Assembly (NCBI GenBank): GCA_035419245.1
Contig: DAOLSP010000018.1
Span: 130 to 64,129 of the forward strand
Length of the DNA: 64,000 bases
Reading direction: 5' to 3'
Source of the DNA: a bacterium
Lineage (GTDB): Bacteria > Zhuqueibacterota > Zhuqueibacteria > Residuimicrobiales > Residuimicrobiaceae
The first letter of the stretch is position 1. Each line of letters opens with the position of its first letter. Position numbers and translations under genes: made by a program. The notes beneath the pieces were generated by a model that saw only the letters and a list, made by a program, of their open reading frames with translations, made no database searches and was not told the origin of the DNA. Below are positions 3,000-18,983 of this stretch, piece by piece.

Positions 3000-4502
3000 A
3001 TGAACAGGCATCTGCTGCTCGCACTTTTGACACTCCTTCCCCTTTACGCCCGGGCCCAGGATCAGGCTTCTACTTATTTCGATACGCCGGCTTTGACGCC
3101 TTTCCTCGGCTATGCCGTGCAGTCGGGCCGGATGCAGCTCCCCTTCGTCCTCAACCAGCCCTGGACCACCCTCGAGGTCCTCCAGGCGGCGCTCGGCAGC
3201 GCCCGCAAGGGCATGCCCCCCTGGCAGCAGCATTGGCTGCGGCTGCTGATCAAAGAGATCGCTTTGTACCATCGCGTGGAGAAGAACGAAACCGACGGCT
3301 TGGGCTATCTCGGCGCTCAGGGCTGGTACCGAGGCTTCAGCGATGATGCGGATCAATGGACCGAGGCGCGCGGCGAACTAGAGGGCAAATTCACCACCCC
3401 GTGGTTCGTCCTGGCGCAAAAGACCGTCCTCGACCAGCATTTCAAATTCGATCCCGCCTTCAGCGGCGACACCGGCGAGTGGATCTACGGCCGGGCCGAA
3501 ACCGGCTATCTCCTGGCGCAGTACAAGGGCGCGGCTTTTTTTCTCGGCCGCCTCAGCCGCAACTGGGGGCCGCCCGGCGAGAAGGGGCTGATCCTCTCCG
3601 ATAACCCCTACAGCTATGATACGGCCGGTTTCCAGCTCGGCAGCCGGCGCTTCCGCTTCTCCTTTTATACCAGCCGGCTCAACGATATGCACGGCATCGA
3701 TACCCAGTCGGCTGACTCCACCTGGAAGGAGTATACCCGCTTTTGGTCGATCAAGCGCTTCGACCTGGCGCTGCGTCCCAATCTGCAGATCGGCCTCGCC
3801 GAGGCGGCGGTCTATGGCGCGGTTAACGGCACCTGGCAGATGATCTATCTCAACCCCTTCAACCTCTACTACGTCGAGCAGCGCAACAACCGGGTACAAA
3901 TGAACGGCCTCTGGTGCGCCGACCTCTTCTGGAAGCCCGCTCCCCGGTTCACCCTGTACGGGCAGTATCTCATCGACGATATCATCGTCAATAACGAGCC
4001 GGGCCAGAACGACCGCGCCCGCCACCCCGACCGCATGGGGGTGACCGCGCGTGTGGTGGTCAGCGATCTGCCGGCCGCGGGGGCGCAACTCGGATTCACC
4101 TATACCCGCATAGGCAACTGGACCTACATGTCCTACCGCAATTATGAAAATTATCTTTCCAACGGCCTGAGCATGGGCTATCCGGCCAACCGCATCGAGC
4201 AGGCGGGGATCGATCTCTCCTGGTTCGGCTGGAAGGCCTGGGCAGTGCAGTTGCGGGCCGGTTATGCCCGCCAAGGGAGCCAGGATCTGACGGCCCCCTT
4301 CGGCGACACGCGCGAGTCCTTTCCGCTCGGTGTGGTTTCTTACTGGACCCGCGGCGAACTCTCGGTCAGCTATGTGCCCGCAATCTGGTGGGATGCGCGG
4401 CTCTTCGCCGCAATCGATCACCGCGATGCGCCGGCGGCCGTGGATCATTTCCGCATCGGCGCGGTATTGCATGTAAAGTATAGTGTGGCGGGGCGATTTT
4501 AG
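3000..4502 (+). CDS. Secreted outer-membrane beta-barrel-like protein in the polysaccharide locus (possibly a Wzi-like capsule assembly protein).
   Basis: Signal peptide MNRHLLLALLTLLPLYARAQ. The protein is aromatic/Gly-rich with an alternating pattern and ends in ...HVKYSVAGRF, the terminal-Phe OMP signature. The ORF track starts it at 2940; the internal Met at 3000 precedes the signal peptide. Confidence 0.5.
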   Translation: MNRHLLLALLTLLPLYARAQDQASTYFDTPALTPFLGYAVQSGRMQLPFVLNQPWTTLEVLQAALGSARKGMPPWQQHWLRLLIKEIALYHRVEKNETDGLGYLGAQGWYRGFSDDADQWTEARGELEGKFTTPWFVLAQKTVLDQHFKFDPAFSGDTGEWIYGRAETGYLLAQYKGAAFFLGRLSRNWGPPGEKGLILSDNPYSYDTAGFQLGSRRFRFSFYTSRLNDMHGIDTQSADSTWKEYTRFWSIKRFDLALRPNLQIGLAEAAVYGAVNGTWQMIYLNPFNLYYVEQRNNRVQMNGLWCADLFWKPAPRFTLYGQYLIDDIIVNNEPGQNDRARHPDRMGVTARVVVSDLPAAGAQLGFTYTRIGNWTYMSYRNYENYLSNGLSMGYPANRIEQAGIDLSWFGWKAWAVQLRAGYARQGSQDLTAPFGDTRESFPLGVVSYWTRGELSVSYVPAIWWDARLFAAIDHRDAPAAVDHFRIGAVLHVKYSVAGRF

Positions 4503-4850
4503 GCGGTTACAGGGATTCGCTGCGGGCATTATGACGTCAGTTCGTTACATATGTAAAAAATGTGTTGCATTTATGACTTTTATAGATTATTTTAGTTTAC
4601 CACAAATCCATTCGGGTGGGGCTACATGGGTGTTTTTTTCATCGGGGCACTGGGGCTCTGTGGCGGACATTCTACCCTCAACCAAGCATCCTCTGTCTAT
4701 GCATCTTTTGCCTGCATAATCCATTGCTCAACTTCAGCTGATACCGGTTTCCATCCCTTACTCTCGAGCAATCTCCCACCCATACGGAGCATTACATTAT
4801 TGTGCCACCACACCCGTCATCCATAACCTCGGTTCCAGCAAGGGGAAATC
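4503..4850 (+). promoter_or_regulatory. AT-rich intergenic/promoter region of the wzc-HprK-rSAM operon. It contains perfect palindromes TGACGTCA (4532-4539) and TTACATATGTAA (4545-4556), plus a candidate TTGCAT-N17-TATTTT promoter.
   Basis: A 350-bp non-coding gap with locally low GC in a ~62% GC genome. Palindromes were read directly from the sequence. Confidence 0.4.
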
Positions 4851-7115
4851 ATGCCTCCTGAAGATGCTGCCACGGCAAAAGAATGGGAACTGCGCGACTA
4901 TCTCGATCTTGCCCTCCGGCGCAAAACGGTGATTCTTATAGCCTTCATCCTGACCTTTCTGATCACGGCGGCCTATCAGCTTACGCGGACGCCGGTCTAC
5001 AGCGCCTTCACCTCATTTATCATCGACGAGTCCGCCAGCAGCTCCGGCGTCGGCTCGGAGCGCTATAATCCCTATGCCTACTGGATGGAACGGGGCAAAC
5101 CGATCGAATACTACCAGGCGATCATGGGGAGCCAGGTCTATCAGGTCAAAATCAGGGAGCGGGCCGGCCGCGATGCCGATCTCCTTGGCACGCCCGGCGT
5201 CACCCGTGAGCAGATCGACCGCGCTATCGCCAGCATCAGCCTGGGGATGGATGAAGAATCCAAGTTGATGACCATCTCCGTGCAGGCGTTCCATCCGCTC
5301 GTGGCCTTTAAAGTGGCGCAGATCGCCACCGATGTCTTCCGCGAGCGCAACCAGGAGATCGATGTCGAAAGCGCCCAGGACGTAGTGCGCTTCATCGACA
5401 AACAGCGCCAGGAGGCCCAGGACCGCCTCGAGGAAGCGGAGCGCGCCCTGCAGCAGTACAGCGGCGCCGGCCAGGTGGTCTTTATCGGCGACGACGGCGG
5501 CATGATGAGCAAGGTCGCCCAGGTGGAGTCCATCCTGGAACAGGCCGAAACCGAGCGCCGCCTGGCGGAGAGCAATTACGCTTCCTACACCATGCAGCTG
5601 GAGGCTGCGGGAAAACAAGGCAGCCTGCAGTCGGCCGAATCGTTCCCCGAGGTGGCCGACCTGCGGAAACGCCTCGATCAGCTCGAGGACCAGCGCAATG
5701 CCCTGGCGGTCGCGCCTCAGGCGGACAGCCTTGCCGCGGCGGAACTGGACCGCAAGATCGATAGCGTCAAGGCCGAGCTGCGCCGCGCTATCCTCGCCCA
5801 TTCGACCGAGGCGATGCCGACCGAAGACCGGAAGACCGATGAGATGCGCTCGATGCTGACGCAGAAAGTGGTTGCCGAGCAGATCAACCTCAGCTCGACC
5901 CGCAACCGCGAGCGCTTTTATAACAACCTGCTCGAGGAGTACCGCCGCCAGAGTCCGGAGCGGCTCGAAAAGACGATGGAGCTGGCGCGGCTGCGCCGCA
6001 CCCAGGCGGTCCACCAGAATCTTCTGAATTATCTCGTCGAGCGTCATGAAGAGGCCAAGATCAAGGCGGCGACCGGCGCCGGCGGCCTCCGTATTGTCAA
6101 TCCGGCGGCCCTGCCCGAGCGGCCGAACTCTCGCAATCTGCCGCGCACCCTGCTGATCGGAGCGATGCTGGGCCTGGGGCTGGGATTCGGTCTCGCCATG
6201 CTGCAGGAGTATCTCGACCAGACCGTGCGCACGCGGCAGGATCTCGAGCGGCTCACGGGGGTGCAGGTTGTCGGCCAGATCCCGCTGGCCATCAAACTGA
6301 ACGGCAACAACGGCCACACGCCCCGCACCGGCAGGGTCCGAGCCATGCTCGAAAAGCAGAGCAAAAAGCGGATGGATGGCCAGGGGGAAACGCCCTATTA
6401 TCCCCTGATCAACAAATATGATCCGCATGCACCCTTTGCCGAGGCTTTCCGCAGCCTGCGCACGGATCTGCAATTCTTCAGCATCGACAAGCCGCTCAAC
6501 AAGCTGCTGGTCACCAGCTCGATCCCCGGCGAGGGCAAGACCCTGGTGACCGCCAATCTGGCCATCTCCCATGCGGAGCTGGGCCACAAGGTGGTGATCC
6601 TGGATGCTGATATCCGCAAGCCCAAGCAGCCCACGGTCTTCGGCGTCGATCGCAAGCCGGGTTTCACCGATTATTTTATGGATCTGGTGCCTTACGAGAG
6701 CATTGTCCGCCATCTGCCGGTGCGCGGCCTCGATCTGATCCCCTCGGGCACCGTCCCGCCCAATGTCGGTGAGGTGCTCAACAGCCAAAAGATGGCCGAT
6801 CTGGTCGAACGGCTGGAGGCGGAATACGATTTTGTCCTGGTCGATGCGCCGCCGGTGCTCAGCATCAGTGATGCCAAGGCGCTCTCGCGTATCGTCGAGA
6901 ACCTGCTCCTTGTTTTCCGTTTCGCCAAAACCGAAAAGCATTATGTGCGCGAGGTGGTGGCCAATCTGCGAAACATCAAAGCCACGATTATCGGCTTTGT
7001 CTTCAACGGCATCGAGCTGGGCAGTGGCAAGGGGTATTACAAATACTACTATTACTCCGAGTACCGGGAAAAACTCGACACGCCGCGGGTTGTAGAATCG
7101 GCGCAGGTGAACTGA
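4851..7115 (+). CDS. Polysaccharide co-polymerase / BY-type tyrosine autokinase (Wzc/GumC/EpsG-like chain-length determinant with C-terminal kinase domain).
   Basis: The architecture is an N-terminal TM, a long coiled-coil periplasmic region, a second TM (LLIGAMLGLGLGFGLAML), then a cytoplasmic P-loop domain. Motifs are Walker A SSIPGEGKTLVTANLA, A' VVILDADIRKP, B FVLVDAPP and a C-terminal tyrosine cluster YYKYYYYSEY. Confidence 0.85.
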   Translation: MPPEDAATAKEWELRDYLDLALRRKTVILIAFILTFLITAAYQLTRTPVYSAFTSFIIDESASSSGVGSERYNPYAYWMERGKPIEYYQAIMGSQVYQVKIRERAGRDADLLGTPGVTREQIDRAIASISLGMDEESKLMTISVQAFHPLVAFKVAQIATDVFRERNQEIDVESAQDVVRFIDKQRQEAQDRLEEAERALQQYSGAGQVVFIGDDGGMMSKVAQVESILEQAETERRLAESNYASYTMQLEAAGKQGSLQSAESFPEVADLRKRLDQLEDQRNALAVAPQADSLAAAELDRKIDSVKAELRRAILAHSTEAMPTEDRKTDEMRSMLTQKVVAEQINLSSTRNRERFYNNLLEEYRRQSPERLEKTMELARLRRTQAVHQNLLNYLVERHEEAKIKAATGAGGLRIVNPAALPERPNSRNLPRTLLIGAMLGLGLGFGLAMLQEYLDQTVRTRQDLERLTGVQVVGQIPLAIKLNGNNGHTPRTGRVRAMLEKQSKKRMDGQGETPYYPLINKYDPHAPFAEAFRSLRTDLQFFSIDKPLNKLLVTSSIPGEGKTLVTANLAISHAELGHKVVILDADIRKPKQPTVFGVDRKPGFTDYFMDLVPYESIVRHLPVRGLDLIPSGTVPPNVGEVLNSQKMADLVERLEAEYDFVLVDAPPVLSISDAKALSRIVENLLLVFRFAKTEKHYVREVVANLRNIKATIIGFVFNGIELGSGKGYYKYYYYSEYREKLDTPRVVESAQVN

Positions 7116-8041
7116 TGGTGGAGCACTGCCGCTGGTATTCTATCGGAGATATTACGCTGCAGGTCGAGAGCGATCTGCCTTTTTCTTCCAATACTTTCAG
7201 TGATAAACTCGAGCTCTTTCGCATAGCTTCACCCGGTCCGGACGTGGTGACCGTGCGCCACCATTTCGGTCTGCCGGATATGGCCGGTTGGGATCTCAGC
7301 CGGGAGAAATACCGCCGCGAGCCCTGGGCGATCTACCAGACGGATAAGGGATGGATTTACCTGGGGATTCTGCCGCAGGGATTCGGAGAAAAGCTGTGGA
7401 AGGTGGTGGTATTTAGTCCGGAGCACTCGCAGGCCGATATCTATCATCCGGATGAGTTGGCGTTTGTCCAGGGCGGCGCAACTTCGTTGACCCTGTTTCC
7501 TTCGGATCAGATTTTGGTGGCGCGGCTGCTGGCTGACCGTTCCGGATGTTACCTGCATTCAGCCGGGGCAATTCTGGACGGCCATGGAATGCTCTTTGTC
7601 GGCCACTCCGAGGCGGGCAAATCGACGACCACGCAAATGCTGATCGATGCCGGGGCGCGCGGAGATCTGGCGGCGGAGATCCTCTGCGATGACCGCAACA
7701 TCGTACGGCGGTTTGATGACGGCTGGCGGGCTTATGGTTCCTGGAGTCATGGTGATATTCCTGTGGTCTCCGCCGCCTTGGCGCCGCTGCGGGCAATCTG
7801 TTTTATTGAAAAGTCGGCCAAGAACAGTTTGACGCCGTTGACCGACCGGCAGGAGATCATCCGGCGATTACTCGCCTGCGTGATCAAGCCGTTCGTCACC
7901 GCGGAGTGGTGGGAGAAAACCATCGATGTGGTGGCGCAGCTGGCAGCGGAAGCCAGGTTTTTTCTCATGCGTTTTGACAAGAGCGGTAAAATCGTCAGTG
8001 ATCTGGTCAGGATAGCTCGTTCATCAGAGCAGAACGGCTGA
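7115..8041 (+). CDS. HPr-kinase/phosphorylase-related P-loop protein (HprK-like kinase, copy 1), of the kind found in peptide-maturation neighbourhoods.
   Basis: P-loop FVGHSEAGKSTTTQMLIDAGA followed by ILCDDRNIVRR, matching HprK C-domain GxSGxGKS and the DD motif. Its ATG overlaps the Wzc stop (TGATG at 7113-7117). Paralog of 24493..25389. Confidence 0.7.
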   Translation: MVEHCRWYSIGDITLQVESDLPFSSNTFSDKLELFRIASPGPDVVTVRHHFGLPDMAGWDLSREKYRREPWAIYQTDKGWIYLGILPQGFGEKLWKVVVFSPEHSQADIYHPDELAFVQGGATSLTLFPSDQILVARLLADRSGCYLHSAGAILDGHGMLFVGHSEAGKSTTTQMLIDAGARGDLAAEILCDDRNIVRRFDDGWRAYGSWSHGDIPVVSAALAPLRAICFIEKSAKNSLTPLTDRQEIIRRLLACVIKPFVTAEWWEKTIDVVAQLAAEARFFLMRFDKSGKIVSDLVRIARSSEQNG

Positions 8042-8097
8042 ATTTTCCAGAAACGAAAGTTGGATCAGACCAGATTCGGGAGGGAATTTCTTAAATC

Positions 8098-9453
8098 ATG
8101 TCGTATGTTCGACGATTGTACCCTCATGAATTCCATGCCTGTCACAAGGAGCCGCTGCTCGAGCATCTTGATCTCGAGTTGACTGAACGCTGCAACAACG
8201 CCTGCATCCACTGCTGTATCAATCAGCCCGAGCACGACGCAGAATTGGCGGCCCGGGAGATGGATACGGCGTTTGTCAAGTATCTGTTGAGGCAGGCAGC
8301 TGATTTAGGTGCGATTTCTGTTCGCTTTACCGGCGGAGAGCCTTTATTGCGCAGTGATTTCACCGAGCTCTATCTCTTCGCCAGACGTTTGGGGATGCAG
8401 GTGACGCTCTTTACCAACGGCCGGCTTATCACTCCGGAACTGGCGCAGCTGCTGGCGATCATTCCGCCCGGCAAGCCGGTGGAGGTGACGGTCTATGGCA
8501 TGCACCCGGAATCCTACGACGCCGTGGCTGCCTGTCGAGGCGCTTTCGCGGAATTTTGGCGCGGCATCGGCCTGTTGCAAGAGTATGGCATTCGTTTCAC
8601 GGTCAAACAGAGTCTGCTGCCGCCCAACCGGGGCGAGAGAGCGGAATTCGAAACCTGGGCCGCGACGCTGCCGGAAATGAAACAGCTGTCCGGATACAGC
8701 ATGAATTTCGAGCTGCGCGGCCGCCGCGATCATCCGGCCAAAAACCGGCTCATCGAATCGTTCCGTCTCACGCCGGAGGAGACGGTGGCCCTGCTGGCGG
8801 AGCGTCCGGGATATATCGATGAGATGCGCCAGTTCTGCAGCAAATTCATGGCTCCCCCAGGAGAACTGGTTTTTCAGTGCGGTGCAGGCAAGGGCGTCAT
8901 GGTGGATGCTTATGGCAAAGCCCAGATGTGTATGGGGCTGCGCCACCCGGATTATGTCTACGATTTGTACCAAACCGCTCAAGCGGAGGCTGCTGGCATA
9001 TCACCACTGAAATTTGCATTGACACATGTTTTTCCTGAATGGCGCGAAATGAAGGCAGCCCACCCGGAGTATCTGAGCCGTTGCGCCCGTTGTTTTCTCA
9101 AGGGGCTGTGCGAACAGTGTCCCGCGCGTTCATGGCAGGAGCATGGTACGCTGGATACGCCGGTTGAGTATCTTTGCAATGTCGCTCATGCACAGGCTCG
9201 GCACCTGGGCCTCCTTGCAGCTGGCGAAAAAGCCTGGGAAGTAAAAAACTGGCGCGAGCGCATCGCCCGGTTCAGCAGCAGAGAAGCAGGTAAAGTTTTC
9301 AAAATGGAACTTAATGAAAAAAGGATAAATGATGGAAACCGCTCTCAATTTGAACAGCATCTGTACGCCGTCGGAAGATATCGTGGCGCGGGAGATCGAA
9401 GGCGAGTTGATCATCATCCCTCTTGCCGCCGGAATCGGCGATATGGAGGATGA
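8098..9453 (+). CDS. Radical SAM / SPASM-domain peptide-modifying enzyme (copy 1).
   Basis: rSAM motif LTERCNNACIHCC (CxxxCxxC), GGEPLL, and C-terminal SPASM cysteines (FQCGAGKGVMVDAYGKAQMC ... CARCFLKGLCEQCPARSW ... YLCNVAHAQA). An RBS GGGAGGGAA lies upstream. The last ~42 aa are an Arg-rich tail that overlaps the PqqD gene; see the A6-run finding. Confidence 0.9.
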   Translation: MSYVRRLYPHEFHACHKEPLLEHLDLELTERCNNACIHCCINQPEHDAELAAREMDTAFVKYLLRQAADLGAISVRFTGGEPLLRSDFTELYLFARRLGMQVTLFTNGRLITPELAQLLAIIPPGKPVEVTVYGMHPESYDAVAACRGAFAEFWRGIGLLQEYGIRFTVKQSLLPPNRGERAEFETWAATLPEMKQLSGYSMNFELRGRRDHPAKNRLIESFRLTPEETVALLAERPGYIDEMRQFCSKFMAPPGELVFQCGAGKGVMVDAYGKAQMCMGLRHPDYVYDLYQTAQAEAAGISPLKFALTHVFPEWREMKAAHPEYLSRCARCFLKGLCEQCPARSWQEHGTLDTPVEYLCNVAHAQARHLGLLAAGEKAWEVKNWRERIARFSSREAGKVFKMELNEKRINDGNRSQFEQHLYAVGRYRGAGDRRRVDHHPSCRRNRRYGG

Positions 9454-9637
9454 GCTATATACCCTGAACGAAACCGGCAAGGTGATCTGGGGCCGCATGG
9501 ATGGGAGTGCAACGCTCGGGCAGATCGCAGCAGCATTGGCCGATGAGTACAATGCGCCCTTGAATGAGATCGAGCAGGACGTGTTGGGATTGGTCAACGA
9601 AATGGTTCGACGGAAAATTATCCATGCAAAATCATAA
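9329..9637 (+). CDS. PqqD-family peptide chaperone (RiPP recognition element, RRE).
   Basis: 102 aa: EIEGELIIIP...LNETGKVIWGRMDGSATLGQIAAALADEYNAPLNEIEQDVLGLVNEMVRRKII, which matches the PqqD consensus LN.TA..IW.L.DG.RT..EI...L...Y......IE.DV..FL..L. Confidence 0.85.
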   Translation: MMETALNLNSICTPSEDIVAREIEGELIIIPLAAGIGDMEDELYTLNETGKVIWGRMDGSATLGQIAAALADEYNAPLNEIEQDVLGLVNEMVRRKIIHAKS

Positions 9638-9723
9638 ATCATGAGTTTTAGTTTTAATGTCTAATTCATGCTGGAAATGATCCGGCGTAATCACTCTTTC
9701 AATCTTAGCGGAGGAAAGCCAAG

Positions 9724-9897
9724 ATGAAAACCAATGCAAATCAGTGGAAAAAGCCGGAATTGCTCGTTCTGACTCGCAGTAACCCGGAAGAGGCTGTGTT
9801 GACCGGATGTAAAAATGTGACTATTAATGGCCCTAAGTCCGGACAGAAATACTGTCAGGGGCCAGTAGCCCAGTGTACGAACGTAGCTGGCAGTTGA
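9724..9897 (+). CDS. Precursor peptide (57 aa) with PqqA-like leader and three-Cys core: MKTNANQWKKPELLVLTRSNPEEAVLTGCKNVTINGPKSGQKYCQGPVAQCTNVAGS. Not in the ORF track because it is under 60 aa.
   Basis: Strong RBS GCGGAGGAAAGCCAAGATG. It lies immediately downstream of PqqD and the rSAM gene. The leader WKKPEL resembles the PqqA WKKPAF. A second copy with the same leader sits beside the paralogous rSAM at 23063..23245. Cys at positions 29, 44 and 51. Confidence 0.75.
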   Translation: MKTNANQWKKPELLVLTRSNPEEAVLTGCKNVTINGPKSGQKYCQGPVAQCTNVAGS

Positions 9898-10125
9898 AAA
9901 CGGCTGAGAAGGATCACTCAAGCACCTGGTTACTGATAAAGTAACAGGACTTCCAAAATCCTGAGAAGATATCATGGATTATTCAGGGTTCAGGAGCATG
10001 CGGAAGCAGTGTGCACATTTGTAAAGCAACCCCCGCTTCCAATGGAGAAAATAAAAGCGACGATGTCATCGTGATCCATAAACACCCCCAGCGTAATCTG
10101 ATCGTCTGAATGGAGGACGAATTGA

Positions 10126-10662
10126 ATGCGCCTGGGCAAGATTGCAAAGGGGATGCTGCGCCGGTTGCAGGACAGGGCGATCTATCGTTCTCTTTGGCGA
10201 AAGCTTGCCCCTCAACTCACGCTCCGAGAGGCATCAGACAGAGATTTGCTCCTCGTTCATCAATGGCTTAACGGCACCAGGGATTTCGAGCTGCAGCGCT
10301 CCCCGAACTTGACCGAATGGGTGGCTCTTTATCGTGGTCACATTGTTGGCTTTGTCCAACTGATTCGTTATCCGCAGGATAATGAACTTTATCAGGGGTA
10401 TTGGCTTTTCAGCATGAATGTCAAACCGCTCCGGCGCGGAATGGGAATTGGCAGTGCATTAACACGAACCGTAATAAATCGTGCTTGCGATGAAAGTGCG
10501 CCTTTTCTGGATTTGCTGGTTTTCGAGGATAATCTGCGCGCAATCAGGCTCTACGCCAAAATGGGATTTGAGCCCTGCATAATCCCGGCGCTAGAGCCCT
10601 CACTTGAAAAGGAACGGGAAGTATATGGCCGACGCCGGCTGGTGATGCGGAAAGTATTCTGA
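10126..10662 (+). CDS. GNAT-family N-acetyltransferase.
   Basis: QGYWLFSMNVKPLRRGMGIGSALTRTVINRA...RAIRLYAKMGFEP, i.e. GNAT motifs A and B. RBS GGAGGA upstream. Confidence 0.75.
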   Translation: MRLGKIAKGMLRRLQDRAIYRSLWRKLAPQLTLREASDRDLLLVHQWLNGTRDFELQRSPNLTEWVALYRGHIVGFVQLIRYPQDNELYQGYWLFSMNVKPLRRGMGIGSALTRTVINRACDESAPFLDLLVFEDNLRAIRLYAKMGFEPCIIPALEPSLEKEREVYGRRRLVMRKVF

Positions 10663-10875
10663 TTTTCAGAACCAGACAAACCACGTTAAAATATTACTTT
10701 GGAAAGAGCATTTTTGAATTTGAAGCAGGTGGAACTGGATTTTCGTTCGGCTAAGGTGACATTTCAGGGCACATGCTCCGAGGTGCGCGAAGTGTGTTAA
10801 GCGTGATGCTGCCGCAATGATTGGGTTGTCGGCATAACAGCGGAAGAATACGCGAACGGATTATTCCAGGCTCAA

Positions 10876-11493
10876 GTGATCTGTTCCTTGACCAACAAAG
10901 AATGTAAAAGGTCGGATGAAACCTGCCGTTACCGCATCTATCGTCTCAGCAAACGCACCGATAATAGCTGTGTCTATCTTGAGGACAATCGCTGCTCCAA
11001 TTATGAAATACGGCCGCAGGTATGCCGCGATTTCCACTGCCAGACAGGTTGGAAGCTCGCTTCGGTCTTTCCCGATTCCAGCGTATTGGGAGATGGAGGC
11101 TCGACGCTCACCCTGGACCGTTTTCTCGACCAGATCACGGATGACGCAGTATTTGTGCCGCATCCGCTTATCAAGGTACATGCTGTTTTTTACCTGCGGC
11201 CCAAACAGTCTATTATTTTTGTTAAAGAGATGGTTGGCGGTTGCGGCAAATTCAACAGCAGAGATGATCTATATTCTCCGCTGCTCGATGATGACAAGTT
11301 GATGCTGTTGATCGGCCTTTTTACATACAAGGAAACTTTGGGGCAGCTTTTCACGAGATTTACAGACCAGGCGGCTGTTGCCTTGAGTCGCAGAGAGTTT
11401 CTCACACTGGTTTGGCTGCTCAATAAACATAATATCGTCATTGATTCGCGCAATTTCAGGGGCATGCTGGCCGGCATGGGCGGAATTGAGTAA
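10876..11493 (+). CDS. YkgJ/UPF0153-type cysteine-cluster (putative Fe-S or zinc) protein.
   Basis: CxxC...C pattern NKECKRSDETC ... SCVYLEDNRCSNYEIRPQVCRDFHC, typical of YkgJ-family CxxCxxCC domains. Apparent GTG start, so start uncertain. Confidence 0.5.
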   Translation: MICSLTNKECKRSDETCRYRIYRLSKRTDNSCVYLEDNRCSNYEIRPQVCRDFHCQTGWKLASVFPDSSVLGDGGSTLTLDRFLDQITDDAVFVPHPLIKVHAVFYLRPKQSIIFVKEMVGGCGKFNSRDDLYSPLLDDDKLMLLIGLFTYKETLGQLFTRFTDQAAVALSRREFLTLVWLLNKHNIVIDSRNFRGMLAGMGGIE

Positions 11494-11566
11494 CGAAGGC
11501 TGTCATATCACGTTCATCAGTGATCCTTCACGGCAAACCCTGCCCAACCCGGAATTCGCTGAACTG

Positions 11567-11992
11567 ATGGCGGCGGTTCTGGCCAAGGGCACTCTTTTCA
11601 GGTTTCAGGCCAGCGGCAGCAGTATGGCCCCCTTCATCAGAGGGGGGGATGTACTTACCTTTGCGCCAATCACCAAACCTCCTGGTCTGGGGGAAATAGC
11701 AGCTTTTCGTCAGCCTGTAACCGGGCGGCTGATGGTGCACCGGATCATCCGCCGGCGTCAAGGTCTTTTTCTTATCAAAGGTGATAACAGCTGCCATCAT
11801 GATGGTTGGGTGCCCTCAGAGAATATTCTTGGCCGCGTTAGCCGCATTGAACATCGGGAGCGAACGGTTCGGTTGGGCCTGGGCTGGGAGCGCATTCCGA
11901 TCGCAGCACTCTCACGGCTCGGCCTACTGTGGCCCCTCTCACAGGCAATGCGCCGGCTGTTGCGGCCGGTTTATAAAAGGTTTTTTGCATGA
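11567..11992 (+). CDS. Small soluble S24/S26-family serine peptidase (LexA/signal-peptidase fold). Candidate leader peptidase.
   Basis: FRFQASGSSMAPFIRGGDVLTF matches the S26/S24 nucleophile box (GxSMxP...GD). No TM segment. The ORF track starts it at a TTG at 11441, the internal Met at 11567 is more plausible, and the gene ends in ATGA overlap with the downstream rSAM gene. Confidence 0.6.
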   Translation: MAAVLAKGTLFRFQASGSSMAPFIRGGDVLTFAPITKPPGLGEIAAFRQPVTGRLMVHRIIRRRQGLFLIKGDNSCHHDGWVPSENILGRVSRIEHRERTVRLGLGWERIPIAALSRLGLLWPLSQAMRRLLRPVYKRFFA

Positions 11993-13113
11993 CCCATACG
12001 TCATCGATAGAGATTCAGGATTTCGCTCTTTGGCAAAAACTCGAGGCCAAACGCGCCCTCTTCAGCTTTGACCTGGACCTGACCGCCCGCTGCAACCTCA
12101 ACTGCCGCCACTGCTATATCAACCTGCCGGCGGGAGATGAAGCGGCCCGGGCGAAGGAACTCTCCCTGGAGGAGATCGGCCGCATCGCCGATCAGGCGAT
12201 CGAACTCGGCGCGCTTTGGTGCCTGCTCACCGGCGGCGAGCCGCTGCTGCGGCCTGATTTCCCCGACATCTACCTCATGCTCAAGCGCAAGGGGCTGCTG
12301 ATCTCGCTCTTTACCAATGCGACCCTGGTGCGGCCGGAGCACATCGCGCTGTTCACAAAGTACCCGCCACGCGATATCGAGGTGACCATCTATGGGGCCT
12401 CAGCCGCAACCTATGAGCGCGTCACCCGCCGGCCAGGCGCCTTTGCACAGTTCATCACCGGCCTCGACGCCCTTTTCGCGGCCGGCATCAGGGTGCGCCT
12501 TAAGGCGATGGCCCTGCGCTCCAATCTTGAGGATATGGAGGCGATCGCCGCCTTCGGCCGCAGCCGCACCAAGGATTACTATCGCTTCGATCCCCAGCTG
12601 CACCTGCGCTATGACCGCGATCCGGTGCGCAACGAGGAGATCAGGGCGGAGCGGCTCACCCCCGCAGATGTGACGGACATGGAGAGGGCCGACGCTGAGC
12701 GCTTCGGTTCGTTGCTGAAGGGCTGCGATGAGCTGATAAACGAAGCTTTCACCCATGCCGGCTGCGACCATCTTTTTCACTGCGGCGCCGGCAACGGCAG
12801 CTGCAGCATCGGCTATGACGGAACCTTCCGCCTCTGCCAGTCGCTCTGGGCGCCGGGCACCACGGCCAACTTGCGCGAGGTGCCGCTGCGTCAGGCCTGG
12901 GAGGAACTGGTGCCGCGCGTGCGCGACCTGCGTTCCCGGGATCCGCAGTTCCTGCAAAGCTGCCGTGCATGTGCGATCGTGAATCTCTGTCTGTGGTGCC
13001 CGGCCCACGCCCATCTCGAGACCGGGCGGATGGACGGAGAAACCCCCTTCTTTTGCGCCGTCGCTCATGCCAGAGCGCAAGCGCTACAAAGCGCAATATT
13101 TGACGAAAAGTGA
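11989..13113 (+). CDS. Radical SAM / SPASM-domain enzyme (copy 3, paralog of 8098..9453 and 23288..24496).
   Basis: LTARCNLNCRHCYINLP (CxxxCxxC), GGEPLL, SPASM Cys cluster FHCGAGNGSCSIGYDGTFRLC...CRACAIVNLCLWCPAHAH...FFCAVAHARA. Colinear similarity to the other two rSAMs (FDLDLTARCN vs LDLELTERCN, ERLTPAD vs FRLTPEE). Confidence 0.9.
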   Translation: MTHTSSIEIQDFALWQKLEAKRALFSFDLDLTARCNLNCRHCYINLPAGDEAARAKELSLEEIGRIADQAIELGALWCLLTGGEPLLRPDFPDIYLMLKRKGLLISLFTNATLVRPEHIALFTKYPPRDIEVTIYGASAATYERVTRRPGAFAQFITGLDALFAAGIRVRLKAMALRSNLEDMEAIAAFGRSRTKDYYRFDPQLHLRYDRDPVRNEEIRAERLTPADVTDMERADAERFGSLLKGCDELINEAFTHAGCDHLFHCGAGNGSCSIGYDGTFRLCQSLWAPGTTANLREVPLRQAWEELVPRVRDLRSRDPQFLQSCRACAIVNLCLWCPAHAHLETGRMDGETPFFCAVAHARAQALQSAIFDEK

Positions 13114-13291
13114 ATTATTTACTTGCTTTTCGCTGGTTTTTTTTCTAATTTCAGTTAATAGGGGAAGTGTGGGGAAGTACCTCTTTACGGTTATGCTGCT
13201 GTTGTACCGCATCCTTTGCCCGCCATCCTGACCGTCCAACCCCCCTTTTAACGCCGCACTGCATCGTGTCCGCAACCTTGTCAGGACCTTC

Positions 13292-14545
13292 ATGACGATC
13301 CGACGCATCCTTGGCTTGTTCTTTGTCATCATGGCCGGAGCCGCACCGGCGCAGAGCGGCGAGTTCGGTGATCTCTATGCCCGCCTCGCGCGTCACGGTT
13401 TCGAGAATCTGCGCATCGCCGCCACGGCCGACAGCGGTCTGGCCATCGCCTTTGAGAACCGTGTTTACCGCCACGATCTCAAGGCCGTCGGCGAGATGCT
13501 AAAGCTGGCCGGCCAGGCCGATTCAACCTGGCAGCGCCTGTACATCATCCCCTGCAGCCGCGGCGTCGCACGCGGTCAGATTATGGTGCTGCGCGCCGCC
13601 TACCGCGCCTTCATGGACGGCTCGATGGATGCCCCGGCTTTCAGCCGGACGCTGGTCATCGGCGAAGCGACGCAACAGCCGGAAGCGGCGGTGCAGGCCT
13701 GGCAGAACCGCTCCTTTTTCAAGCTGGATCTCAATGTGACCTTCGGCCACCAGATCCAGCTTGGGCAGTATGACGACCGCGTCAAGCTCTACGGCCAGGT
13801 CCAGCCCGGACTGCGCAGCCAGCTATGGCACGGCACCCTGGTCCAGGCGGAGGCCTTTATCCCGGTCTTTGACGAGATCGGCGTCTATGATACCGGCGCC
13901 CGGCTCGGCCGGCTCAGCGTCAGTCAGCTCTTACGCCTGCCGCGCGACAGTTATCTGGCCCTTCAGGGCGGGATCTTTATGCCGGAGCGCTGGGGCTTCT
14001 CGGGTGAGACCGCAAAATTCTGGCTGGGCCGCAGGGTCCTGACCGGCATCAAATTGGACTATACCGGCTTTTTCTACCATAGCGAGGGCACGTGGTATTA
14101 CTCGAACATGGACAGCCTGACCTATAAAGTCTATGCGCAGTATTTTCTCCCCAGCCTGGATATGATGGTGGGGATCGATTACAGCAAATATCTGATCGGC
14201 GACAAGGGACCCTGCTTCACCCTGCGCCGGACGTTCTCTGAAACCGATATCGAACTGTATTATGCAGTCACCAATCTCGACCGCTTCGGCGGCGTGCGCT
14301 TCCGTTTTCCCCTGCCGACGCAGCAGCGGATGCGTCCCGCCCGGGTGCGCCTGACCTGGCCCAGCCAGTACGGCATGAGCTACCAGGCCACCAGCGAAGC
14401 GACGCGCTACGAGGGGGTGCTGCAAACCGGGCTCAGCGTGGATCCGGGTTTTGCTATCAGCGAGTTCGTCAAACCGCTCACTCCGGCGCATGTCCTGGCC
14501 AATATCAAGGGGTGGCGCGAGGGGGATGACACGGCCAATGAATGA
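13292..14545 (+). CDS. Secreted protein with signal peptide. Putative outer-membrane/exopolysaccharide-associated protein of unknown function.
   Basis: Signal peptide MTIRRILGLFFVIMAGAAPAQS. Aromatic/Gly-rich, 417 aa. No catalytic motifs recognised. Confidence 0.4.
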   Translation: MTIRRILGLFFVIMAGAAPAQSGEFGDLYARLARHGFENLRIAATADSGLAIAFENRVYRHDLKAVGEMLKLAGQADSTWQRLYIIPCSRGVARGQIMVLRAAYRAFMDGSMDAPAFSRTLVIGEATQQPEAAVQAWQNRSFFKLDLNVTFGHQIQLGQYDDRVKLYGQVQPGLRSQLWHGTLVQAEAFIPVFDEIGVYDTGARLGRLSVSQLLRLPRDSYLALQGGIFMPERWGFSGETAKFWLGRRVLTGIKLDYTGFFYHSEGTWYYSNMDSLTYKVYAQYFLPSLDMMVGIDYSKYLIGDKGPCFTLRRTFSETDIELYYAVTNLDRFGGVRFRFPLPTQQRMRPARVRLTWPSQYGMSYQATSEATRYEGVLQTGLSVDPGFAISEFVKPLTPAHVLANIKGWREGDDTANE

Positions 14546-14579
14546 TACCGATATCAACCTAACAGGGAGGAAACAAACC

Positions 14580-16211
14580 ATGAAACAATGGCCAAAAATC
14601 GGGTGGGTACTGGCACTGTTGCTCATGGTGCTGGCCATCGGCTGCGAACAGGTCTCCGATCCCGGAACCGTCGCACAATTCCAGACGGCGAGCAACGCGA
14701 CTTTGTTCAGCACGGCGACCGGCGTGAGCAAGACGACCTTTTATTCCTATGAAAACGTCCTGCTCACTTTCGAGGATCTCTATCCCAATGAACAGACCGA
14801 CGTGCAGATCATTCGCAAAAGCGACGGCCATATGATCAAGCGTATGCTGGTCATAACCGACGGCACCGGCGCCATCCGCGATCTGCCGATCTGGTTTTTC
14901 AACAACTACCGCAAACCGGGCGAACTCGGCGGCGAACATAACTTTTTCGTTCACCTCGAGCAGCCGGGCGTGGACCGGCCCTGGAAAATCTTCACCATTC
15001 TCTTCCACAGCCAGGAAACGTTGCCCTCCGATCCGCAGTTGCGGGTGACGGATGCGGCCGGCAATTTTGCGGGCGGTGCATTATTTGTCGGCAACCCGGT
15101 CTATGTCGCCGGCAGCAAGATCGGCGTCAAAGCCACCGTACAGCTGCTGATGGTGGCCGACAAGAGCATCTATACCACGGGCGATGTGCTCACCGACCTG
15201 AGCGACAATGGCATCGAGACGACCAAGACCGAGAAGAACGGTCTGCTCGGGCCGGTCAAAATTTGCAACGCCGCGGCGGTCGGAGCGTATGATATCGTCG
15301 CCGATACTGCGCCCTTTGGCGTCTACAATGCGGGCGACGTCGTCAGCGATGCCGCTTTCCCCGGCCTCCTGGTTCAGAACCATTCGGGTGCAAGCGATAT
15401 CATCCAGGACATCGCCTGCGATGCGACCGGTTTTTACAAGAACCAGTTCGATTCGCTCGAAATCGTCTATGCCAAGGTGAACGCGCTCACCCGGCCCGGT
15501 TATGTGCCGAGCGAGTTCGTCAATCTTTTCATCACGCCGCACAAACCGGTCTGGAACAAGGGGGACGCCCTCTTCAGCATGCGCACCGTCGGCACCTTTG
15601 AGATGCCGGTGCAGTGCATCTGGAACGGATATGCCGGCTATCTGCCCCTGATCCGCATGCACGGTGGCAGCCTGGCCAGTGACGACGCCCCCATCAGAAT
15701 GTGGCCCGGCGAATATGATGTCATCCTGGACGTCGACCGCAACTATACTTATGATCCCGGCATCGATATCCTCGATGGCGGCGCGGCGCCCGGTTTCACT
15801 GTGCCTGGCAAAGTCCCGCCCGTGCGCTTCGCCGTCACCGCCGATAATGATTTCCTTGGCCGTGAGGCCGGAAATCCGAACATCTGGGGTTATTTCCGCG
15901 ACCAGATCAGCACCAAGGTCTGGGGCGTGCTGGTGGATAAAGACGGCATTCCCATCAGCTCCATTCCGGTCAACTATGCCATCACCTCCGGTCCTGGCAG
16001 CCTGAGTGCCGCCTCGGCAGTCACCGGGCTCAACGGCGGCGCCTGGGTGGTCTTTTCGGGCGGCACGTATGGCGCCGGCACAGTGGTGCAGCTCACCTGC
16101 CGGGTGAACGATGTGGATTATACCAAGAGCATCCGCATTTTCCGCAAGATTCCGTTCAGCCACAATCAGGGCGTCATCGTGCACAATCAGGGCACGGTGA
16201 GTGGCAATTAG
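14580..16211 (+). CDS. Lipoprotein of unknown function.
   Basis: Lipobox MKQWPKIGWVLALLLMVLAIGC with RBS AGGGAGGAAAC upstream. The ORF track starts at 14451, but the Met at 14580 precedes the signal peptide. Confidence 0.5.
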   Translation: MKQWPKIGWVLALLLMVLAIGCEQVSDPGTVAQFQTASNATLFSTATGVSKTTFYSYENVLLTFEDLYPNEQTDVQIIRKSDGHMIKRMLVITDGTGAIRDLPIWFFNNYRKPGELGGEHNFFVHLEQPGVDRPWKIFTILFHSQETLPSDPQLRVTDAAGNFAGGALFVGNPVYVAGSKIGVKATVQLLMVADKSIYTTGDVLTDLSDNGIETTKTEKNGLLGPVKICNAAAVGAYDIVADTAPFGVYNAGDVVSDAAFPGLLVQNHSGASDIIQDIACDATGFYKNQFDSLEIVYAKVNALTRPGYVPSEFVNLFITPHKPVWNKGDALFSMRTVGTFEMPVQCIWNGYAGYLPLIRMHGGSLASDDAPIRMWPGEYDVILDVDRNYTYDPGIDILDGGAAPGFTVPGKVPPVRFAVTADNDFLGREAGNPNIWGYFRDQISTKVWGVLVDKDGIPISSIPVNYAITSGPGSLSAASAVTGLNGGAWVVFSGGTYGAGTVVQLTCRVNDVDYTKSIRIFRKIPFSHNQGVIVHNQGTVSGN

Positions 16212-17025
16212 GCCGGTCTTTTCGCCTGCCCCCGCCGGCGACAGGGCGAGGGCAGGCGATCAAGGCTGCAGCATGGTTGGCGCCGCCCGGCGTCCGGGCG
16301 GTGGCCGATGGCGTGTGATTTTATGGGTTGGTTTCCTCCTGCTCATAGCGCCCGGACTCTGTCCGGGCGTTCTTTTTGCCCAGAATGCCTCGGTCTTTGG
16401 TTACAGCGGATTGATGCTGGTCCCGGTGGCGGATCTTGCCCCGGATGGCGAGATCACCGCAGGGATCAGCCGCATCCCGATCCTCTATGCGAACTGGTTT
16501 CCCAACCGGCGAACGGTGATGTGGGGGCGGATCGGCTTTCTGCCCTTTCTCGAGGCGGGGGGGATGTTCGTTCGGCCGGATCATTACACCTGGGGCTTTG
16601 GTGACCGTTCGGTCTATCTCAAGCTGCAGATTCTGCGCGAGCACGGGCGCTGGCCGTCGCTGACGCTGGGCGCACAGGATTTTTTTGCCCTGAAGGCCTT
16701 GCATTGGGAGACCGCGACGGCGCAGCATTTCGGCGCGCTTTATCTGGTGGCTTCCAGGCATACGACCCTGCGCGGCGTGCCGCTGCATCTCCATCTCGGC
16801 TACGGGCCGGACTGGCTGGTGGCGCGCACCAAAATGCTCACCGGGCTTTTCGGCGGGGTGACCTGGTCGCCGCAGCGGATGGTGACGCTGCTGGCCGAGT
16901 ATGATGCGAAGTCGCTCAACGCCGGCGTGCGGTTGCACCCGGCGCGGTTCCTGCAGCTGCAGTGGGCCTGGTGGCAGCTGCGGGTGGTGACGGCGACCCT
17001 GGCGCTCTCGGTTCAGCTTCAGTAA
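16201..17025 (+). CDS. Putative secreted/outer-membrane protein of unknown function (start uncertain; possible signal peptide beginning near 16273).
   Basis: Hydrophobic segment ILWVGFLLLIAPGLCPGVLFAQ followed by GYSGLMLVPVADLAPDGEIT. High coding potential in this frame. No family recognised. Confidence 0.4.
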   Translation: MAIRPVFSPAPAGDRARAGDQGCSMVGAARRPGGGRWRVILWVGFLLLIAPGLCPGVLFAQNASVFGYSGLMLVPVADLAPDGEITAGISRIPILYANWFPNRRTVMWGRIGFLPFLEAGGMFVRPDHYTWGFGDRSVYLKLQILREHGRWPSLTLGAQDFFALKALHWETATAQHFGALYLVASRHTTLRGVPLHLHLGYGPDWLVARTKMLTGLFGGVTWSPQRMVTLLAEYDAKSLNAGVRLHPARFLQLQWAWWQLRVVTATLALSVQLQ

Positions 17026-17144: not shown

Positions 17145-18983
17145 ATGACTCCACGATTGCGCTCCCTTCGCAAGCTCACGCCCCGTCAGCTGCGCGAGGA
17201 ATTACTCCCCAACATCCTGAGATCGATCCGGCTGGTCTGGCAGGCCTCGCCCTCCCTCTTTATGATCAGCACCCTGCTGCTGGTGCTACAGAGCGTACTG
17301 CCGCTGGGCATACTCTACACCAGTAAGCTGATCCTCGACGGAGTCGCCGCGGCCCTGAAACCGGGCACAGCCGCATCGACGCCGCCCTCGCTGCTTTTTC
17401 TTGCCACGCTGGTGGCGGGACTGGTCTTTCTCCAGGTGATGGCCAGCAGCTTGCACGACTGGCTGCAGCAACACCAGTCCGCCCTGGTGCAGGAGAGCAT
17501 CATGGAGCGGCTGCATGCAAAATCGGTGGAGATCGATTTCGCCTACTACGAAAATCCCGAGTTTTTCGATACCCTGCATCAGGCGCAGCATCAGGCGATC
17601 TACCGGCCGTCGCAGCTGGTTGGCCGCCTCCAGAACATCATCCAGCAGAGTCTGACCCTGGCCGGACTGGTCGGCCTGCTCTTCCTCTTTCATTGGTCGA
17701 TTCCGCTGCTGTTGCTGCTGACCCTCCTGCCCGCCCTGCTGTTCCGCCTCCATTTTGCAGATGTGCTCTTCGAGTGGCGCCGCAAGAGCAGCAATCTGGA
17801 ACGCAAAAGCTACCATTATCACTGGCTGCTCACCGACAAGACGTGGGCCAAGGAGGTGCGTGTTCTCGCGGTGGGGCGTCTGTTCCGCCGCCGTTACCGC
17901 GCCATCCAGCGGCGGCTGCGCGTTGAGCAGTTCCGTATCAACGGCCGGCAGACCCGCGGCACGCTGATCGCCCAGCTGCTGGCGACAGCCGTGGCATACG
18001 GATTTTACATTGTGCTGATCGGCCGAACCCTGGCGGGGGCCATCACCCTCGGCAGCCTGGTGATGTACTTTCAAGCCTTCCAGCAGGCTTTGAATGCCTT
18101 GCGGACGCTTTTCACCGGGATCGGGGATATTTACGAGGACACCCGGTTTGTCTCCCAGCTCTTTGCCTTTTTCGCTCTGACTCCGGGTGTGGCGCGGAGT
18201 GTGCCGGTGCGTCCGATGCCGGCGGTCATCCGGCACGGGTTGACGATCGATGGCGTCTCCTTTCGCTACCCGGCCAGCGGGCGCTGGGCGCTGCAGTCGG
18301 TCTCGTTCACGGCCGCCCCGGGCGAACGCATCGCCCTGGCCGGGGCCAACGGCTCAGGGAAGAGCACCTTGATGAAGCTCATCTGCCGGCTCTACGACCC
18401 CACCGAGGGGCGGATTCTGATCGACGGTATCGACATCCGCGAGTTCGAGCAGGTTGAGTGGTGGCGCCGCCTGGCGGTGATGTTTCAGGATTTTGAGGAA
18501 TACAACCTCAGCGCTCGTGAGAATATCTGGCTGGGGGACATCCGTTTGCCGCTACGGGACGGGCGGATCGAGACGGCAGCCGACCTCTCGGGCGCCAGCA
18601 GAGTGATCGCCGGGCTGCCGCAGGGCTATGAGACCATGTTGGGTAAATGGTTCGATGAGGGGGAGGAGCTGAGCAAGGGGGAGTGGCAGCGGATTGCGGT
18701 GGCGCGGGCCTTTCTGCGCGACGCTCCGATCATGATCTTTGACGAGCCCACCAGCGCCCTCGACGCCCGCAACGAGTACGAGATGCTCAGTGCCTGGATG
18801 GAGCGGGTGCGCGGCCGGGTGGCGATTCTGATCAGCCACCGCATCTCAACCCTGCAGAGTGCGGACCGGATCATCATGATGCACCAGGGGCGTATTGCGG
18901 AGGTCGGGAACCACGCGCAGCTCTGGTCCGCCGGCGGTCCCTATGCGGAGTTGTTCAACCAGCCGGTGCCGGGGCGGCCCTGA
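17145..18983 (+). CDS. ABC exporter, fused transmembrane and ATP-binding domains (MsbA/multidrug/lipid-exporter type).
   Basis: Six predicted TM helices, then Walker A GANGSGKSTL, signature LSKGEWQRIAVARA, Walker B IMIFDEPTSALD. Confidence 0.85.
   Translation: MTPRLRSLRKLTPRQLREELLPNILRSIRLVWQASPSLFMISTLLLVLQSVLPLGILYTSKLILDGVAAALKPGTAASTPPSLLFLATLVAGLVFLQVMASSLHDWLQQHQSALVQESIMERLHAKSVEIDFAYYENPEFFDTLHQAQHQAIYRPSQLVGRLQNIIQQSLTLAGLVGLLFLFHWSIPLLLLLTLLPALLFRLHFADVLFEWRRKSSNLERKSYHYHWLLTDKTWAKEVRVLAVGRLFRRRYRAIQRRLRVEQFRINGRQTRGTLIAQLLATAVAYGFYIVLIGRTLAGAITLGSLVMYFQAFQQALNALRTLFTGIGDIYEDTRFVSQLFAFFALTPGVARSVPVRPMPAVIRHGLTIDGVSFRYPASGRWALQSVSFTAAPGERIALAGANGSGKSTLMKLICRLYDPTEGRILIDGIDIREFEQVEWWRRLAVMFQDFEEYNLSARENIWLGDIRLPLRDGRIETAADLSGASRVIAGLPQGYETMLGKWFDEGEELSKGEWQRIAVARAFLRDAPIMIFDEPTSALDARNEYEMLSAWMERVRGRVAILISHRISTLQSADRIIMMHQGRIAEVGNHAQLWSAGGPYAELFNQPVPGRP

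Follow-up and report, generated by a model that had tools for sequence, protein, structure and literature searches.

The SynChlorMet (SCM) cassette combines an HprK-like protein (ScmC), a PqqD homolog and two PqqE-like radical S-adenosylmethionine (rSAM)/SPASM enzymes. Judged by gene content, it is the nearest described kind to the locus reported here, which lies in a 64-kb stretch of bacterial DNA (contig DAOLSP010000018.1, hereafter the window) and can be placed among the rSAM/SPASM cassettes of SCM type for peptides made on the ribosome and modified after translation (RiPPs). The same combination of genes was observed at 7115–13113 and in about 65 related loci, the taxonomic spread was similar (Syntrophobacter-like deltaproteobacteria, Chlorobi and methanogens), and the ScmC, ScmD, ScmE and ScmF models were among the best NCBIfam matches for all four components. 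Other described proteins bear on single components: SodX is a small soluble S26-like protease cutting off an N-terminal propeptide. HPr-kinase homologs phosphorylate the C-terminal Ser of lasso peptide precursors, and a nucleotidyltransferase can go on to glycosylate this phosphate (PMC8498205). The feature under study, 10126–13113 on the forward strand, had been viewed in a preliminary description as a cassette with a third rSAM/SPASM paralog, a small peptidase, a YkgJ-type protein and a GNAT acetyltransferase but no precursor of its own. Comparative analysis indicates that it is the downstream (3′) half of one conserved RiPP operon starting at 7115 and not a separate system. The conserved operon, its core set and the mechanism proposed below are, as a whole, given a probability of about 75%, a reading built on observed gene order, three rSAM clades, a single precursor family and catalytic-residue patterns.

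Gene order of the operon

On the forward strand, the operon began with a gene for a ScmC-like protein (7115–8041), assigned from weak NCBIfam and Pfam matches and from its position, which carried an HprK-type P-loop (GHSEAGKST) and stood alone without a fused rSAM domain. This was followed by genes for rSAM-1 (8098–9453), a PqqD-family RiPP recognition element (RRE) predicted to act as leader-binding chaperone (9329–9637; PF05402, 58 bits) and the 57-aa precursor-1 (9724–9897). The flagged segment then encoded the GNAT acetyltransferase (10126–10662), a YkgJ-like Cys-cluster protein with an RRE fold whose gene has two in-frame stops (10705–11493; remaining open reading frame, ORF, 10876–11493), a small soluble serine peptidase of S26B (SEC11/archaeal) type, which is the putative leader peptidase (11486–11992), and rSAM-3 (11989–13113). 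The TGA of the peptidase gene overlapped the ATG of rSAM-3 as ATGA. An ABC exporter with permease and ATPase parts, recognized by Pfam marks, was encoded at 17145–18983. ORF map, Pfam and sequence thus bore out the four genes that the preliminary description had located in the segment.

For comparison, some 80 loci spanning many phyla of bacteria and archaea (cited below as L plus a number), containing 83 places with a peptidase gene, were annotated with the window proteins. PqqD was encoded directly upstream of the peptidase in 63 of the 83 places and an rSAM enzyme directly downstream in 51, or in 50 of the 75 places where the sequence continued for 1.5 kb or more beyond it. In 28 of 52 loci, the stop of the peptidase gene and the start of the clade-B rSAM gene (see below) could overlap by 4 nt. 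Per 83 peptidase places, a clade-B rSAM occurred in 66, a clade-A rSAM in 65, and a ScmC-like gene in 65, where it was the first gene of the conserved operon. Gene calls and Pfam marks gave the recurring order ScmC, rSAM, (precursor), PqqD, Peptidase_S24, rSAM, (NTP_transf_5), ABC exporter, with NTP_transf_5 genes in L007, L010 and L095. In L009 and several other loci the exporter gene came right after that of the clade-B rSAM; in the window, YjbH-like/Ig-like genes (13292–17025) were inserted between the two. The sister loci L012, L013 and L016, which have the same exopolysaccharide-gene surroundings as the window, showed the order ScmC, precursor, clade-A rSAM, PqqD, peptidase, clade-B rSAM, with neither GNAT nor YkgJ.

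Because of this conserved gene order and of the sister loci without GNAT and YkgJ, the flagged block is best read as the 3′ half of a single operon into which two lineage-specific genes have been inserted; the view of a separate cassette, and of GNAT and YkgJ as parts of it, did not withstand the synteny. By the same comparison, the core set comprises the ScmC-like P-loop protein, a clade-A rSAM, PqqD, one precursor, the SEC11-type peptidase, the coupled clade-B rSAM and the ABC exporter. The operon family is widespread and apparently uncharacterised, and in it two or three rSAM enzymes probably modify a small Cys-containing peptide that a signal peptidase-like protease probably trims. From precursor-1 through the YkgJ remnant, the G+C content was 0.45–0.52, versus 0.56–0.63 in core genes, which is consistent with later insertion. 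A promoter and terminator scan of 7000–13400 gave counts at chance level, and no Rfam or tRNA match was obtained anywhere in the window.

The operon was embedded in an exopolysaccharide-type locus (888–7115 and 13292–17025) encoding a sugar transferase, a GNVR/tyrosine-kinase protein, two YjbH-like proteins and an Ig-like protein; the position of the YjbH/Ig-like genes between rSAM-3 and the exporter was common to L012, L013 and L016.

Radical SAM enzymes

The predicted rSAM-3 protein possessed the CX3CX2C motif (C35, C39 and C42) and matched PF04055 with 83.2 bits (gathering score 29.5) and the SPASM family PF13186 with 22.3 bits (gathering score 21.5). In a neighbour-joining tree of 175 rSAM domains, three clean clades were resolved: clade A with 63 members, including rSAM-1 and rSAM-2, the latter from a partial cassette on the reverse strand described below; clade B with 63 members, including rSAM-3 and all 50 rSAMs encoded directly downstream of a peptidase gene; and clade C with 43 members, all N-terminal domains fused to ScmC. 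The CX3CX2C motif and seven SPASM cysteines were kept in all three, and those of rSAM-3 (C265, C283, C325, C328, C334, C337 and C356) were each shared by 92% or more of clade B. Identity of rSAM-3 was 49% to 91% with clade B members and 30% to 39% with clade A members; it was 34% with each of rSAM-1 and rSAM-2, which shared 41% with each other. The tree indicates that rSAM-3 is an ortholog of the distinct, ancient clade B and not simply a third paralog, as it had been designated earlier. In 44 of the 83 places, the ScmC-like protein was some 650 aa long and began with a complete rSAM/SPASM domain of clade C (e.g., L026:4442–6433, L093:5149–7086 and L009:1390–3354).

Two features of the gene calls concern rSAM-1 and its neighbour. 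The rSAM-1 ORF extends about 55 codons beyond the C-terminus of its homologs and shares 125 nt, read in a different frame, with the full-length PqqD ORF, and the start of PqqD (9329–9637) differs between gene callers, giving products of 64 to about 101 aa.

Precursor family and the number of cysteines

Precursor-1 had the leader QWKKPELLVLTRSNPEEAVLTG and a core of the form CK...C......C.....S, with three cysteines and a C-terminal Ser. A hidden Markov model (HMM) seeded with five peptides was iterated over all small ORFs of the related loci and recovered one precursor family of 78 distinct sequences; no second conserved family of small ORFs turned up alongside it in these loci. The family leader followed the pattern W-x-x-P-E/Q-L-x-V-L-x-R-x-x-P-E-E-x-V-L-x-x-C-K, the CK being present in 75 of the 78, and the cores contained 3 to 6 Cys. 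Ser (69 sequences) or Thr (7 sequences) was the C-terminal residue in 76 of the 78. There was one precursor in 48 loci, two in 14, and four in one. A six-frame motif search of the 64 kb gave no precursor besides the two known, in agreement with the preliminary description, which had seen no additional precursor near the segment.

An autonomous RiPP cassette made up of GNAT, YkgJ, peptidase and rSAM-3, whose own precursor is encoded elsewhere in the genome or was missed, might be suggested by the modest identity of rSAM-3 to the other two enzymes, and the low G+C from precursor-1 to the YkgJ remnant does speak for some mosaic history. Yet that low G+C covers the precursor and accessories only, not the peptidase or rSAM-3; in about 65 loci across phyla, clade-B rSAM and peptidase are found together with clade-A rSAM, PqqD, ScmC and this precursor family; and the HMM search recovered a single precursor family, with none further in the window. 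Largely refuted by synteny, this explanation is very unlikely. The earlier proposal that the peptidase and rSAM-3 share precursor-1 with rSAM-1 gains by the same comparative evidence, since no distinct precursor family accompanies the rSAM-3 orthologs and the same family is found throughout the related loci.

The number of cysteines in the core varied with the type of rSAM encoded. Each of the 45 loci whose cores had at least four Cys contained a clade-C rSAM, which was absent from 12 of the 13 loci with only 3-Cys cores. The exception, L017, has two cassettes, one in which a 3-Cys precursor is accompanied by a stand-alone ScmC and rSAMs of clades A and B, and one in which a 4-Cys precursor is accompanied by a clade-C/ScmC fusion; the contrast between 3-Cys and 4-Cys settings within one contig is repeated in L010. 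These counts suggest that a family-wide rule holds, namely two rSAM types for 3-Cys cores and a third, ScmC-fused type once the core has at least four Cys. The window, with two 3-Cys precursors and stand-alone ScmC proteins, contains no ScmC-fused clade-C rSAM. The earlier correspondence between three rSAMs in the window and three Cys per precursor is then coincidental, because rSAM-1 and rSAM-2 are of the same type and serve two precursors. The distribution of the genes does lend support to the broader view that every rSAM type has a Cys-dependent modification of its own.

The possibility that the pathway yields a peptide-derived redox cofactor or metallophore, in the manner of pyrroloquinoline quinone (PQQ) or mycofactocin, with rSAM-3 performing a cofactor-type transformation, was also considered. 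The layout of PqqD, rSAM/SPASM enzyme and peptidase parallels the PQQ and mycofactocin systems; mycofact_rSAM and PqqE were among the HMM matches, core spacing is unusually conserved across phyla (C-x6-C-x6-Ser and a GP motif), and the hosts are mostly anaerobes. However, the mycofactocin and PQQ enzyme HMMs scored far below their cut-offs, the locus frequently includes an ABC exporter, and the sequence between the core cysteines is highly variable, with two to four different precursors in many loci, which is typical of secreted RiPPs. A cofactor as product thus appears unlikely.

The SEC11-type peptidase

The peptidase ORF (11486/11441–11992; residues are numbered from the TTG at 11486) carried a GSSMAPFIRGGD box and passed PF00717 (Peptidase_S24) at the domain level with 25.9 bits (gathering score 23.3), a match explained by the shared clan SF fold. 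In an alignment of 16 homologs, G44, S46, M47, P49, F50, H85, R86, G99 and D100 were invariant and D106 was nearly so (at least 90% conserved), and Ser46-His85-Asp100/106 are proposed as the catalytic residues. The S, H-R and GD boxes agreed with the catalytic boxes of S26B and aligned to those of SEC11A/C (SM-P, H-R and GDN). A profile search of PDB sequences placed human SEC11C (E = 3e-8) and SEC11A (9e-8) on top, followed by bacterial signal peptidase I at about 1e-3 and LexA at 0.4. The archaeal-type signal peptidase I model sigpep_I_arch (TIGR02228) was matched with E = 9.6e-9 and 35.3 bits (cut-off 51.85), and the L026 homolog reached 48.1 bits against it. The AlphaFold model (pLDDT 82) showed a clan SF beta-fold with one short N-terminal helix and two C-terminal helices and contained no helix-turn-helix (HTH). 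No transmembrane-like hydropathy was present, nor any N-terminal hydrophobic segment or anchor, the maximum KD19 of 1.1 falling on a C-terminal amphipathic helix. On alignment, PDB profile, NCBIfam matches and predicted structure together, the best description of the protein is a soluble Ser-His(-Asp) peptidase of SEC11/archaeal type.

Two other assignments were tried and rejected. The first was the resemblance to the nickel superoxide dismutase maturation protease noted in the preliminary description: the corresponding model (SodX, TIGR02754) was matched with E = 4.9e-5 and 23.7 bits (cut-off 63.25), more weakly than the archaeal signal peptidase model. The second was a LexA/UmuD fragment or, more broadly, a regulator that cleaves itself as LexA/UmuD do, or else a scaffold devoid of catalysis such as SipA of pilus assembly. 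The Pfam match to Peptidase_S24 points this way, and the top structural matches in Foldseek included the LexA C-domain, lambda repressor, UmuD′ and SipA. Nevertheless, the Ser, His-Arg and Gly-Asp residues are invariant, with His and not Lys at the position of the base, the profile search favoured SEC11 over LexA by the E-values given above, only one short helix precedes the fold, and the gene is translationally coupled to that of an rSAM maturase. No HTH partner of the kind named earlier as pointing to a repressor was found. Furthermore, the cognate exporter has no C39 peptidase domain, which leaves room, and a need, for a separate leader protease. A regulator or scaffold is thus quite unlikely, and the soluble SEC11-like protease is the candidate for a putative leader peptidase. 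We know of no SEC11-type protease reported as a RiPP leader peptidase.

Relatives of the peptidase were numerous. A word-indexed search found 16 close homologs, a profile search found at least 760 clusters (at 50% identity) with E ≤ 1e-30, and a scan of species-representative genomes found 154 relatives. They came from Thermodesulfobacteriota, Acidobacteriota, Aminicenantes, Anaerolineae, Chlorobiaceae, Omnitrophota, NC10, Planctomycetia and Bacillota, and from the archaea Methanothrix, Methanospirillum and Methanoregula; the family, common in anaerobic digesters, sediments and methanogens, has mostly anaerobic hosts.

Proposed pathway

In the proposed pathway, PqqD would bind the conserved leader (W..PEL.VL...PEE.VL) and present the core to rSAM-1 and rSAM-3, and the two enzymes would introduce different Cys-dependent modifications into this one core. 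The likeliest guess for these is cross-links of thioether type, because SPASM enzymes act on Cys-containing cores. The ScmC-like protein, by analogy with the HPr-kinase homologs of lasso peptide loci, may modify the near-invariant C-terminal Ser/Thr; the peptidase would cut off the leader and the ABC transporter would export the product. GNAT would be an optional tailoring enzyme, probably an acetyltransferase acetylating an amine, and the YkgJ-RRE protein another optional accessory, knocked out in this genome.

The ScmC-like protein (7115–8041) matched the NCBIfam ScmC model with E = 1.4e-6 and 27.9 bits (cut-off 125) and was marked ‘weak’ for PF27840. Hpr_kinase_C matched the ScmC-like proteins weakly at the P-loop, with 11.7 to 16.5 bits (cut-off 33.3), and a search of PDB sequences with the ScmC-like protein gave no meaningful match.

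Several points weigh against the operon-wide reading and its mechanism. The family members are known from sequence alone, and literature searches on SynChlorMet, ScmC to ScmF, HPr kinase together with SPASM, RiPP or PqqD, and the leader motif found no paper on the family. The best HMM matches of the rSAM enzymes (AhbD, NirJ, ScmE/F and StsB) were all far below their cut-offs, and the kinase assignment of ScmC is drawn solely from the P-loop and sub-threshold HMM matches. The Fisher p of 1.5e-11 for the association of cysteine number with rSAM type ignores phylogeny, and the 3-Cys group comprises perhaps four lineages. About nine peptidase homologs (e.g., L040, L056, L064 and L094) occur in other contexts, with no rSAM, PqqD or ScmC neighbours, which shows that the peptidase family is not exclusive to the operon. 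Finally, the leader cleavage site is not predictable, and the positions preceding the conserved CK are not always occupied by the small residues that a signal peptidase would prefer. As to one of these homologs, the peptidase gene at L064:9911–10435 adjoins PorU-like sortase genes and is about 5 kb from an unrelated HprK_rel_A/rSAM/PqqD trio.

A more far-reaching proposal is that the operons represent an undescribed, widespread RiPP class in which each rSAM has its own Cys, an HprK-like protein modifies the C-terminal Ser/Thr and a cytoplasmic SEC11-type protease removes the leader; it is offered tentatively, at somewhat under even odds. What appeared to be an orphan enzyme block now has its place in a large family for which there are a clear parts list, a recognisable precursor family and a testable relation between cysteines and rSAM types, and the original puzzle of an enzyme without a precursor has an ordinary solution. 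The Cys/rSAM rule offers a direct route to assigning one modification per enzyme. As the family has no curated NCBIfam model, characterising one member would annotate hundreds of loci.

GNAT and YkgJ accessory genes

The GNAT protein matched PF00583 with 59.2 bits (gathering score 20.7). Its orthologs were found only in L017 (75% identity), L021 (47%), L089 (48%, partial) and, weakly, L054; L089 is a Methanoregula contig, and its partial ortholog lies directly upstream of the peptidase gene. This scattered distribution indicates that GNAT, like YkgJ, is a dispensable, lineage-specific accessory.

The preliminary description had treated 10663–10875 as intergenic. It is in frame with the 205-aa YkgJ-like ORF and encodes the N-terminus of that protein, ...TFQGTCSEVREVC*A*CCRNDW..., broken by two stops, TAA at 10798–10800 and TGA at 10804–10806, which lie inside an invariant C-x-A-x-C-C motif at its two variable positions. 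The L009 ortholog, of 263 aa and from a metagenome-assembled genome (MAG) of KSB1, aligned gap-free to 10705–11490 across both stops with 55.5% identity. The YkgJ-like homologs formed 34 clusters, all of about 260 aa with C25, C32, C36 and C37 invariant; some full-length relatives carry PF03692, and one is named as YkgJ family by NCBI. The remaining 205-aa ORF scored 21.4 bits for PF03692, just under the gathering score of 23, and the N-terminal C-x6-C-x3-CC is interrupted upstream of it; of the protein, it retains the RRE-like C-terminal domain. Comparable cassettes with a member of this family were present in L009, in L095 and on a JGI contig that encodes YkgJ, PqqD and S24 peptidase. L017, the closest GNAT-bearing relative, keeps only the last ~14 YkgJ codons, fused before the peptidase ORF. 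The YkgJ gene is thus disrupted or truncated here and decaying in the lineage, because of the two in-frame stops and its near-complete loss in L017; the 205-aa remnant may be either expressed or silent. The window matched MAG and metagenome contigs of six assemblies, at least two of which are JGI metagenomes, and 10663–11493 was identical in all of them.

Recoding of the two stops as selenocysteine or pyrrolysine was considered and rejected. TAA cannot encode selenocysteine, and other genes end normally with the same codons; one relative reads CQAWCC at this site, from which two single transitions (CAA to TAA and TGG to TGA) suffice, and the deletion of the gene in L017 also speaks against recoding.

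Satellite cassette and other genes in the window

A satellite partial cassette was located on the reverse strand (21104–25560), encoding ScmC-2 (25560–24493), the clade-A enzyme rSAM-2 (24496–23288), the 62-aa precursor-2 ending in ..AAS (23251–23063), a 297-aa homolog of peptide arginases (22850–21957) and a methyltransferase (21943–21104). Genes for PqqD, peptidase and a clade-B rSAM are lacking from it, so that it probably depends on the main operon, using its PqqD, peptidase and rSAM-3 in trans. The G+C content of the satellite was 0.47–0.51, well below that of the surrounding genes. The arginase homolog matched NCBIfam NF052474 (‘peptide arginase, FlmR/OhkR family’) with E = 3e-41 and 142 bits, below the cut-off of 350, and had all three signature motifs, DAHDD, NEHHEAF and LDIDLDYFCC, as named in PMC12703449. 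Since the core of precursor-2 has two Arg, conversion of Arg to ornithine is plausible.

At 19100–20738 on the forward strand, an HD-CE domain gene is followed by an ORF with a KaiC/RecA-like ATPase domain, called as separate genes; in L012 and L013, a single 1023-aa gene bears both Pfam marks. On the reverse strand, two small ORFs of 66 and 69 aa (34849–35271) with glycine-rich hydrophobic cores, one with a double-glycine-type leader (..EDMEKIAGG) and the other with ..MMQISAGD, lie near a gene for a bacteriocin-type ABC exporter with a peptidase domain (36074–38503; TIGR01193, E = 8e-97). Together they look like an unrelated class II bacteriocin-like locus.

Comparison with known systems

Although the components of the operon find their likeness in SCM, their scores were far below the cut-offs of the SCM models, which are 125 bits for TIGR04249 (ScmC; Pfam PF27840), 100 for TIGR04248 (ScmD) and 400 for TIGR04250 (ScmE) and TIGR04251 (ScmF). 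Versus ScmF and ScmE, respectively, rSAM-3 scored 93.8 and 77.3 bits and rSAM-1 84.8 and 64.4 bits, while PqqD scored 20.9 bits with ScmD and the ScmC-like protein remained at the value given above. Relatives from Chlorobiaceae, Methanospirillum and deltaproteobacteria were likewise far below, their rSAMs scoring at most 96 bits. No NCBIfam model was matched above its cut-off by the proteins scanned, i.e., those of the window and a sample from L026, L093 and L027. The present family also differs from SCM in its SEC11-type peptidase, the often present ScmC-fused third rSAM and a recognisable precursor family; to our knowledge, no precursor has been identified for SCM. Because all components fall so far below the SCM cut-offs, the family is, on these comparisons, a sister system rather than SCM itself.

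Sactipeptide and ranthipeptide systems also use SPASM rSAMs with an RRE on Cys-containing cores, and the StsB, AlbA and PapB models were among the matches. Their scores, however, were far below the cut-offs; the present loci have two or three anciently diverged rSAMs per precursor instead of one, a stand-alone RRE, a putative S26B-like leader protease, a conserved C-terminal Ser/Thr and a ScmC partner. With the lasso peptides paeninodin and pseudomycoidin they share a putative HPr-kinase-like protein, a PqqD-type RRE, precursors ending in Ser and, in some loci, NTP_transf_5, but they have no lasso cyclase or B2 protease, Hpr_kinase_C is matched only weakly at the P-loop, and the modifications are predicted to be made by rSAM enzymes. 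The peptidase resembles SEC11A/C, archaeal signal peptidase I and S26B in its SM-P Ser box, H-R box, GD(N) box and clan SF fold, and it differs from signal peptidases in being about 160 aa long and apparently cytoplasmic, without the N-terminal membrane anchor, and in the coupling of its gene to that of an rSAM maturase.

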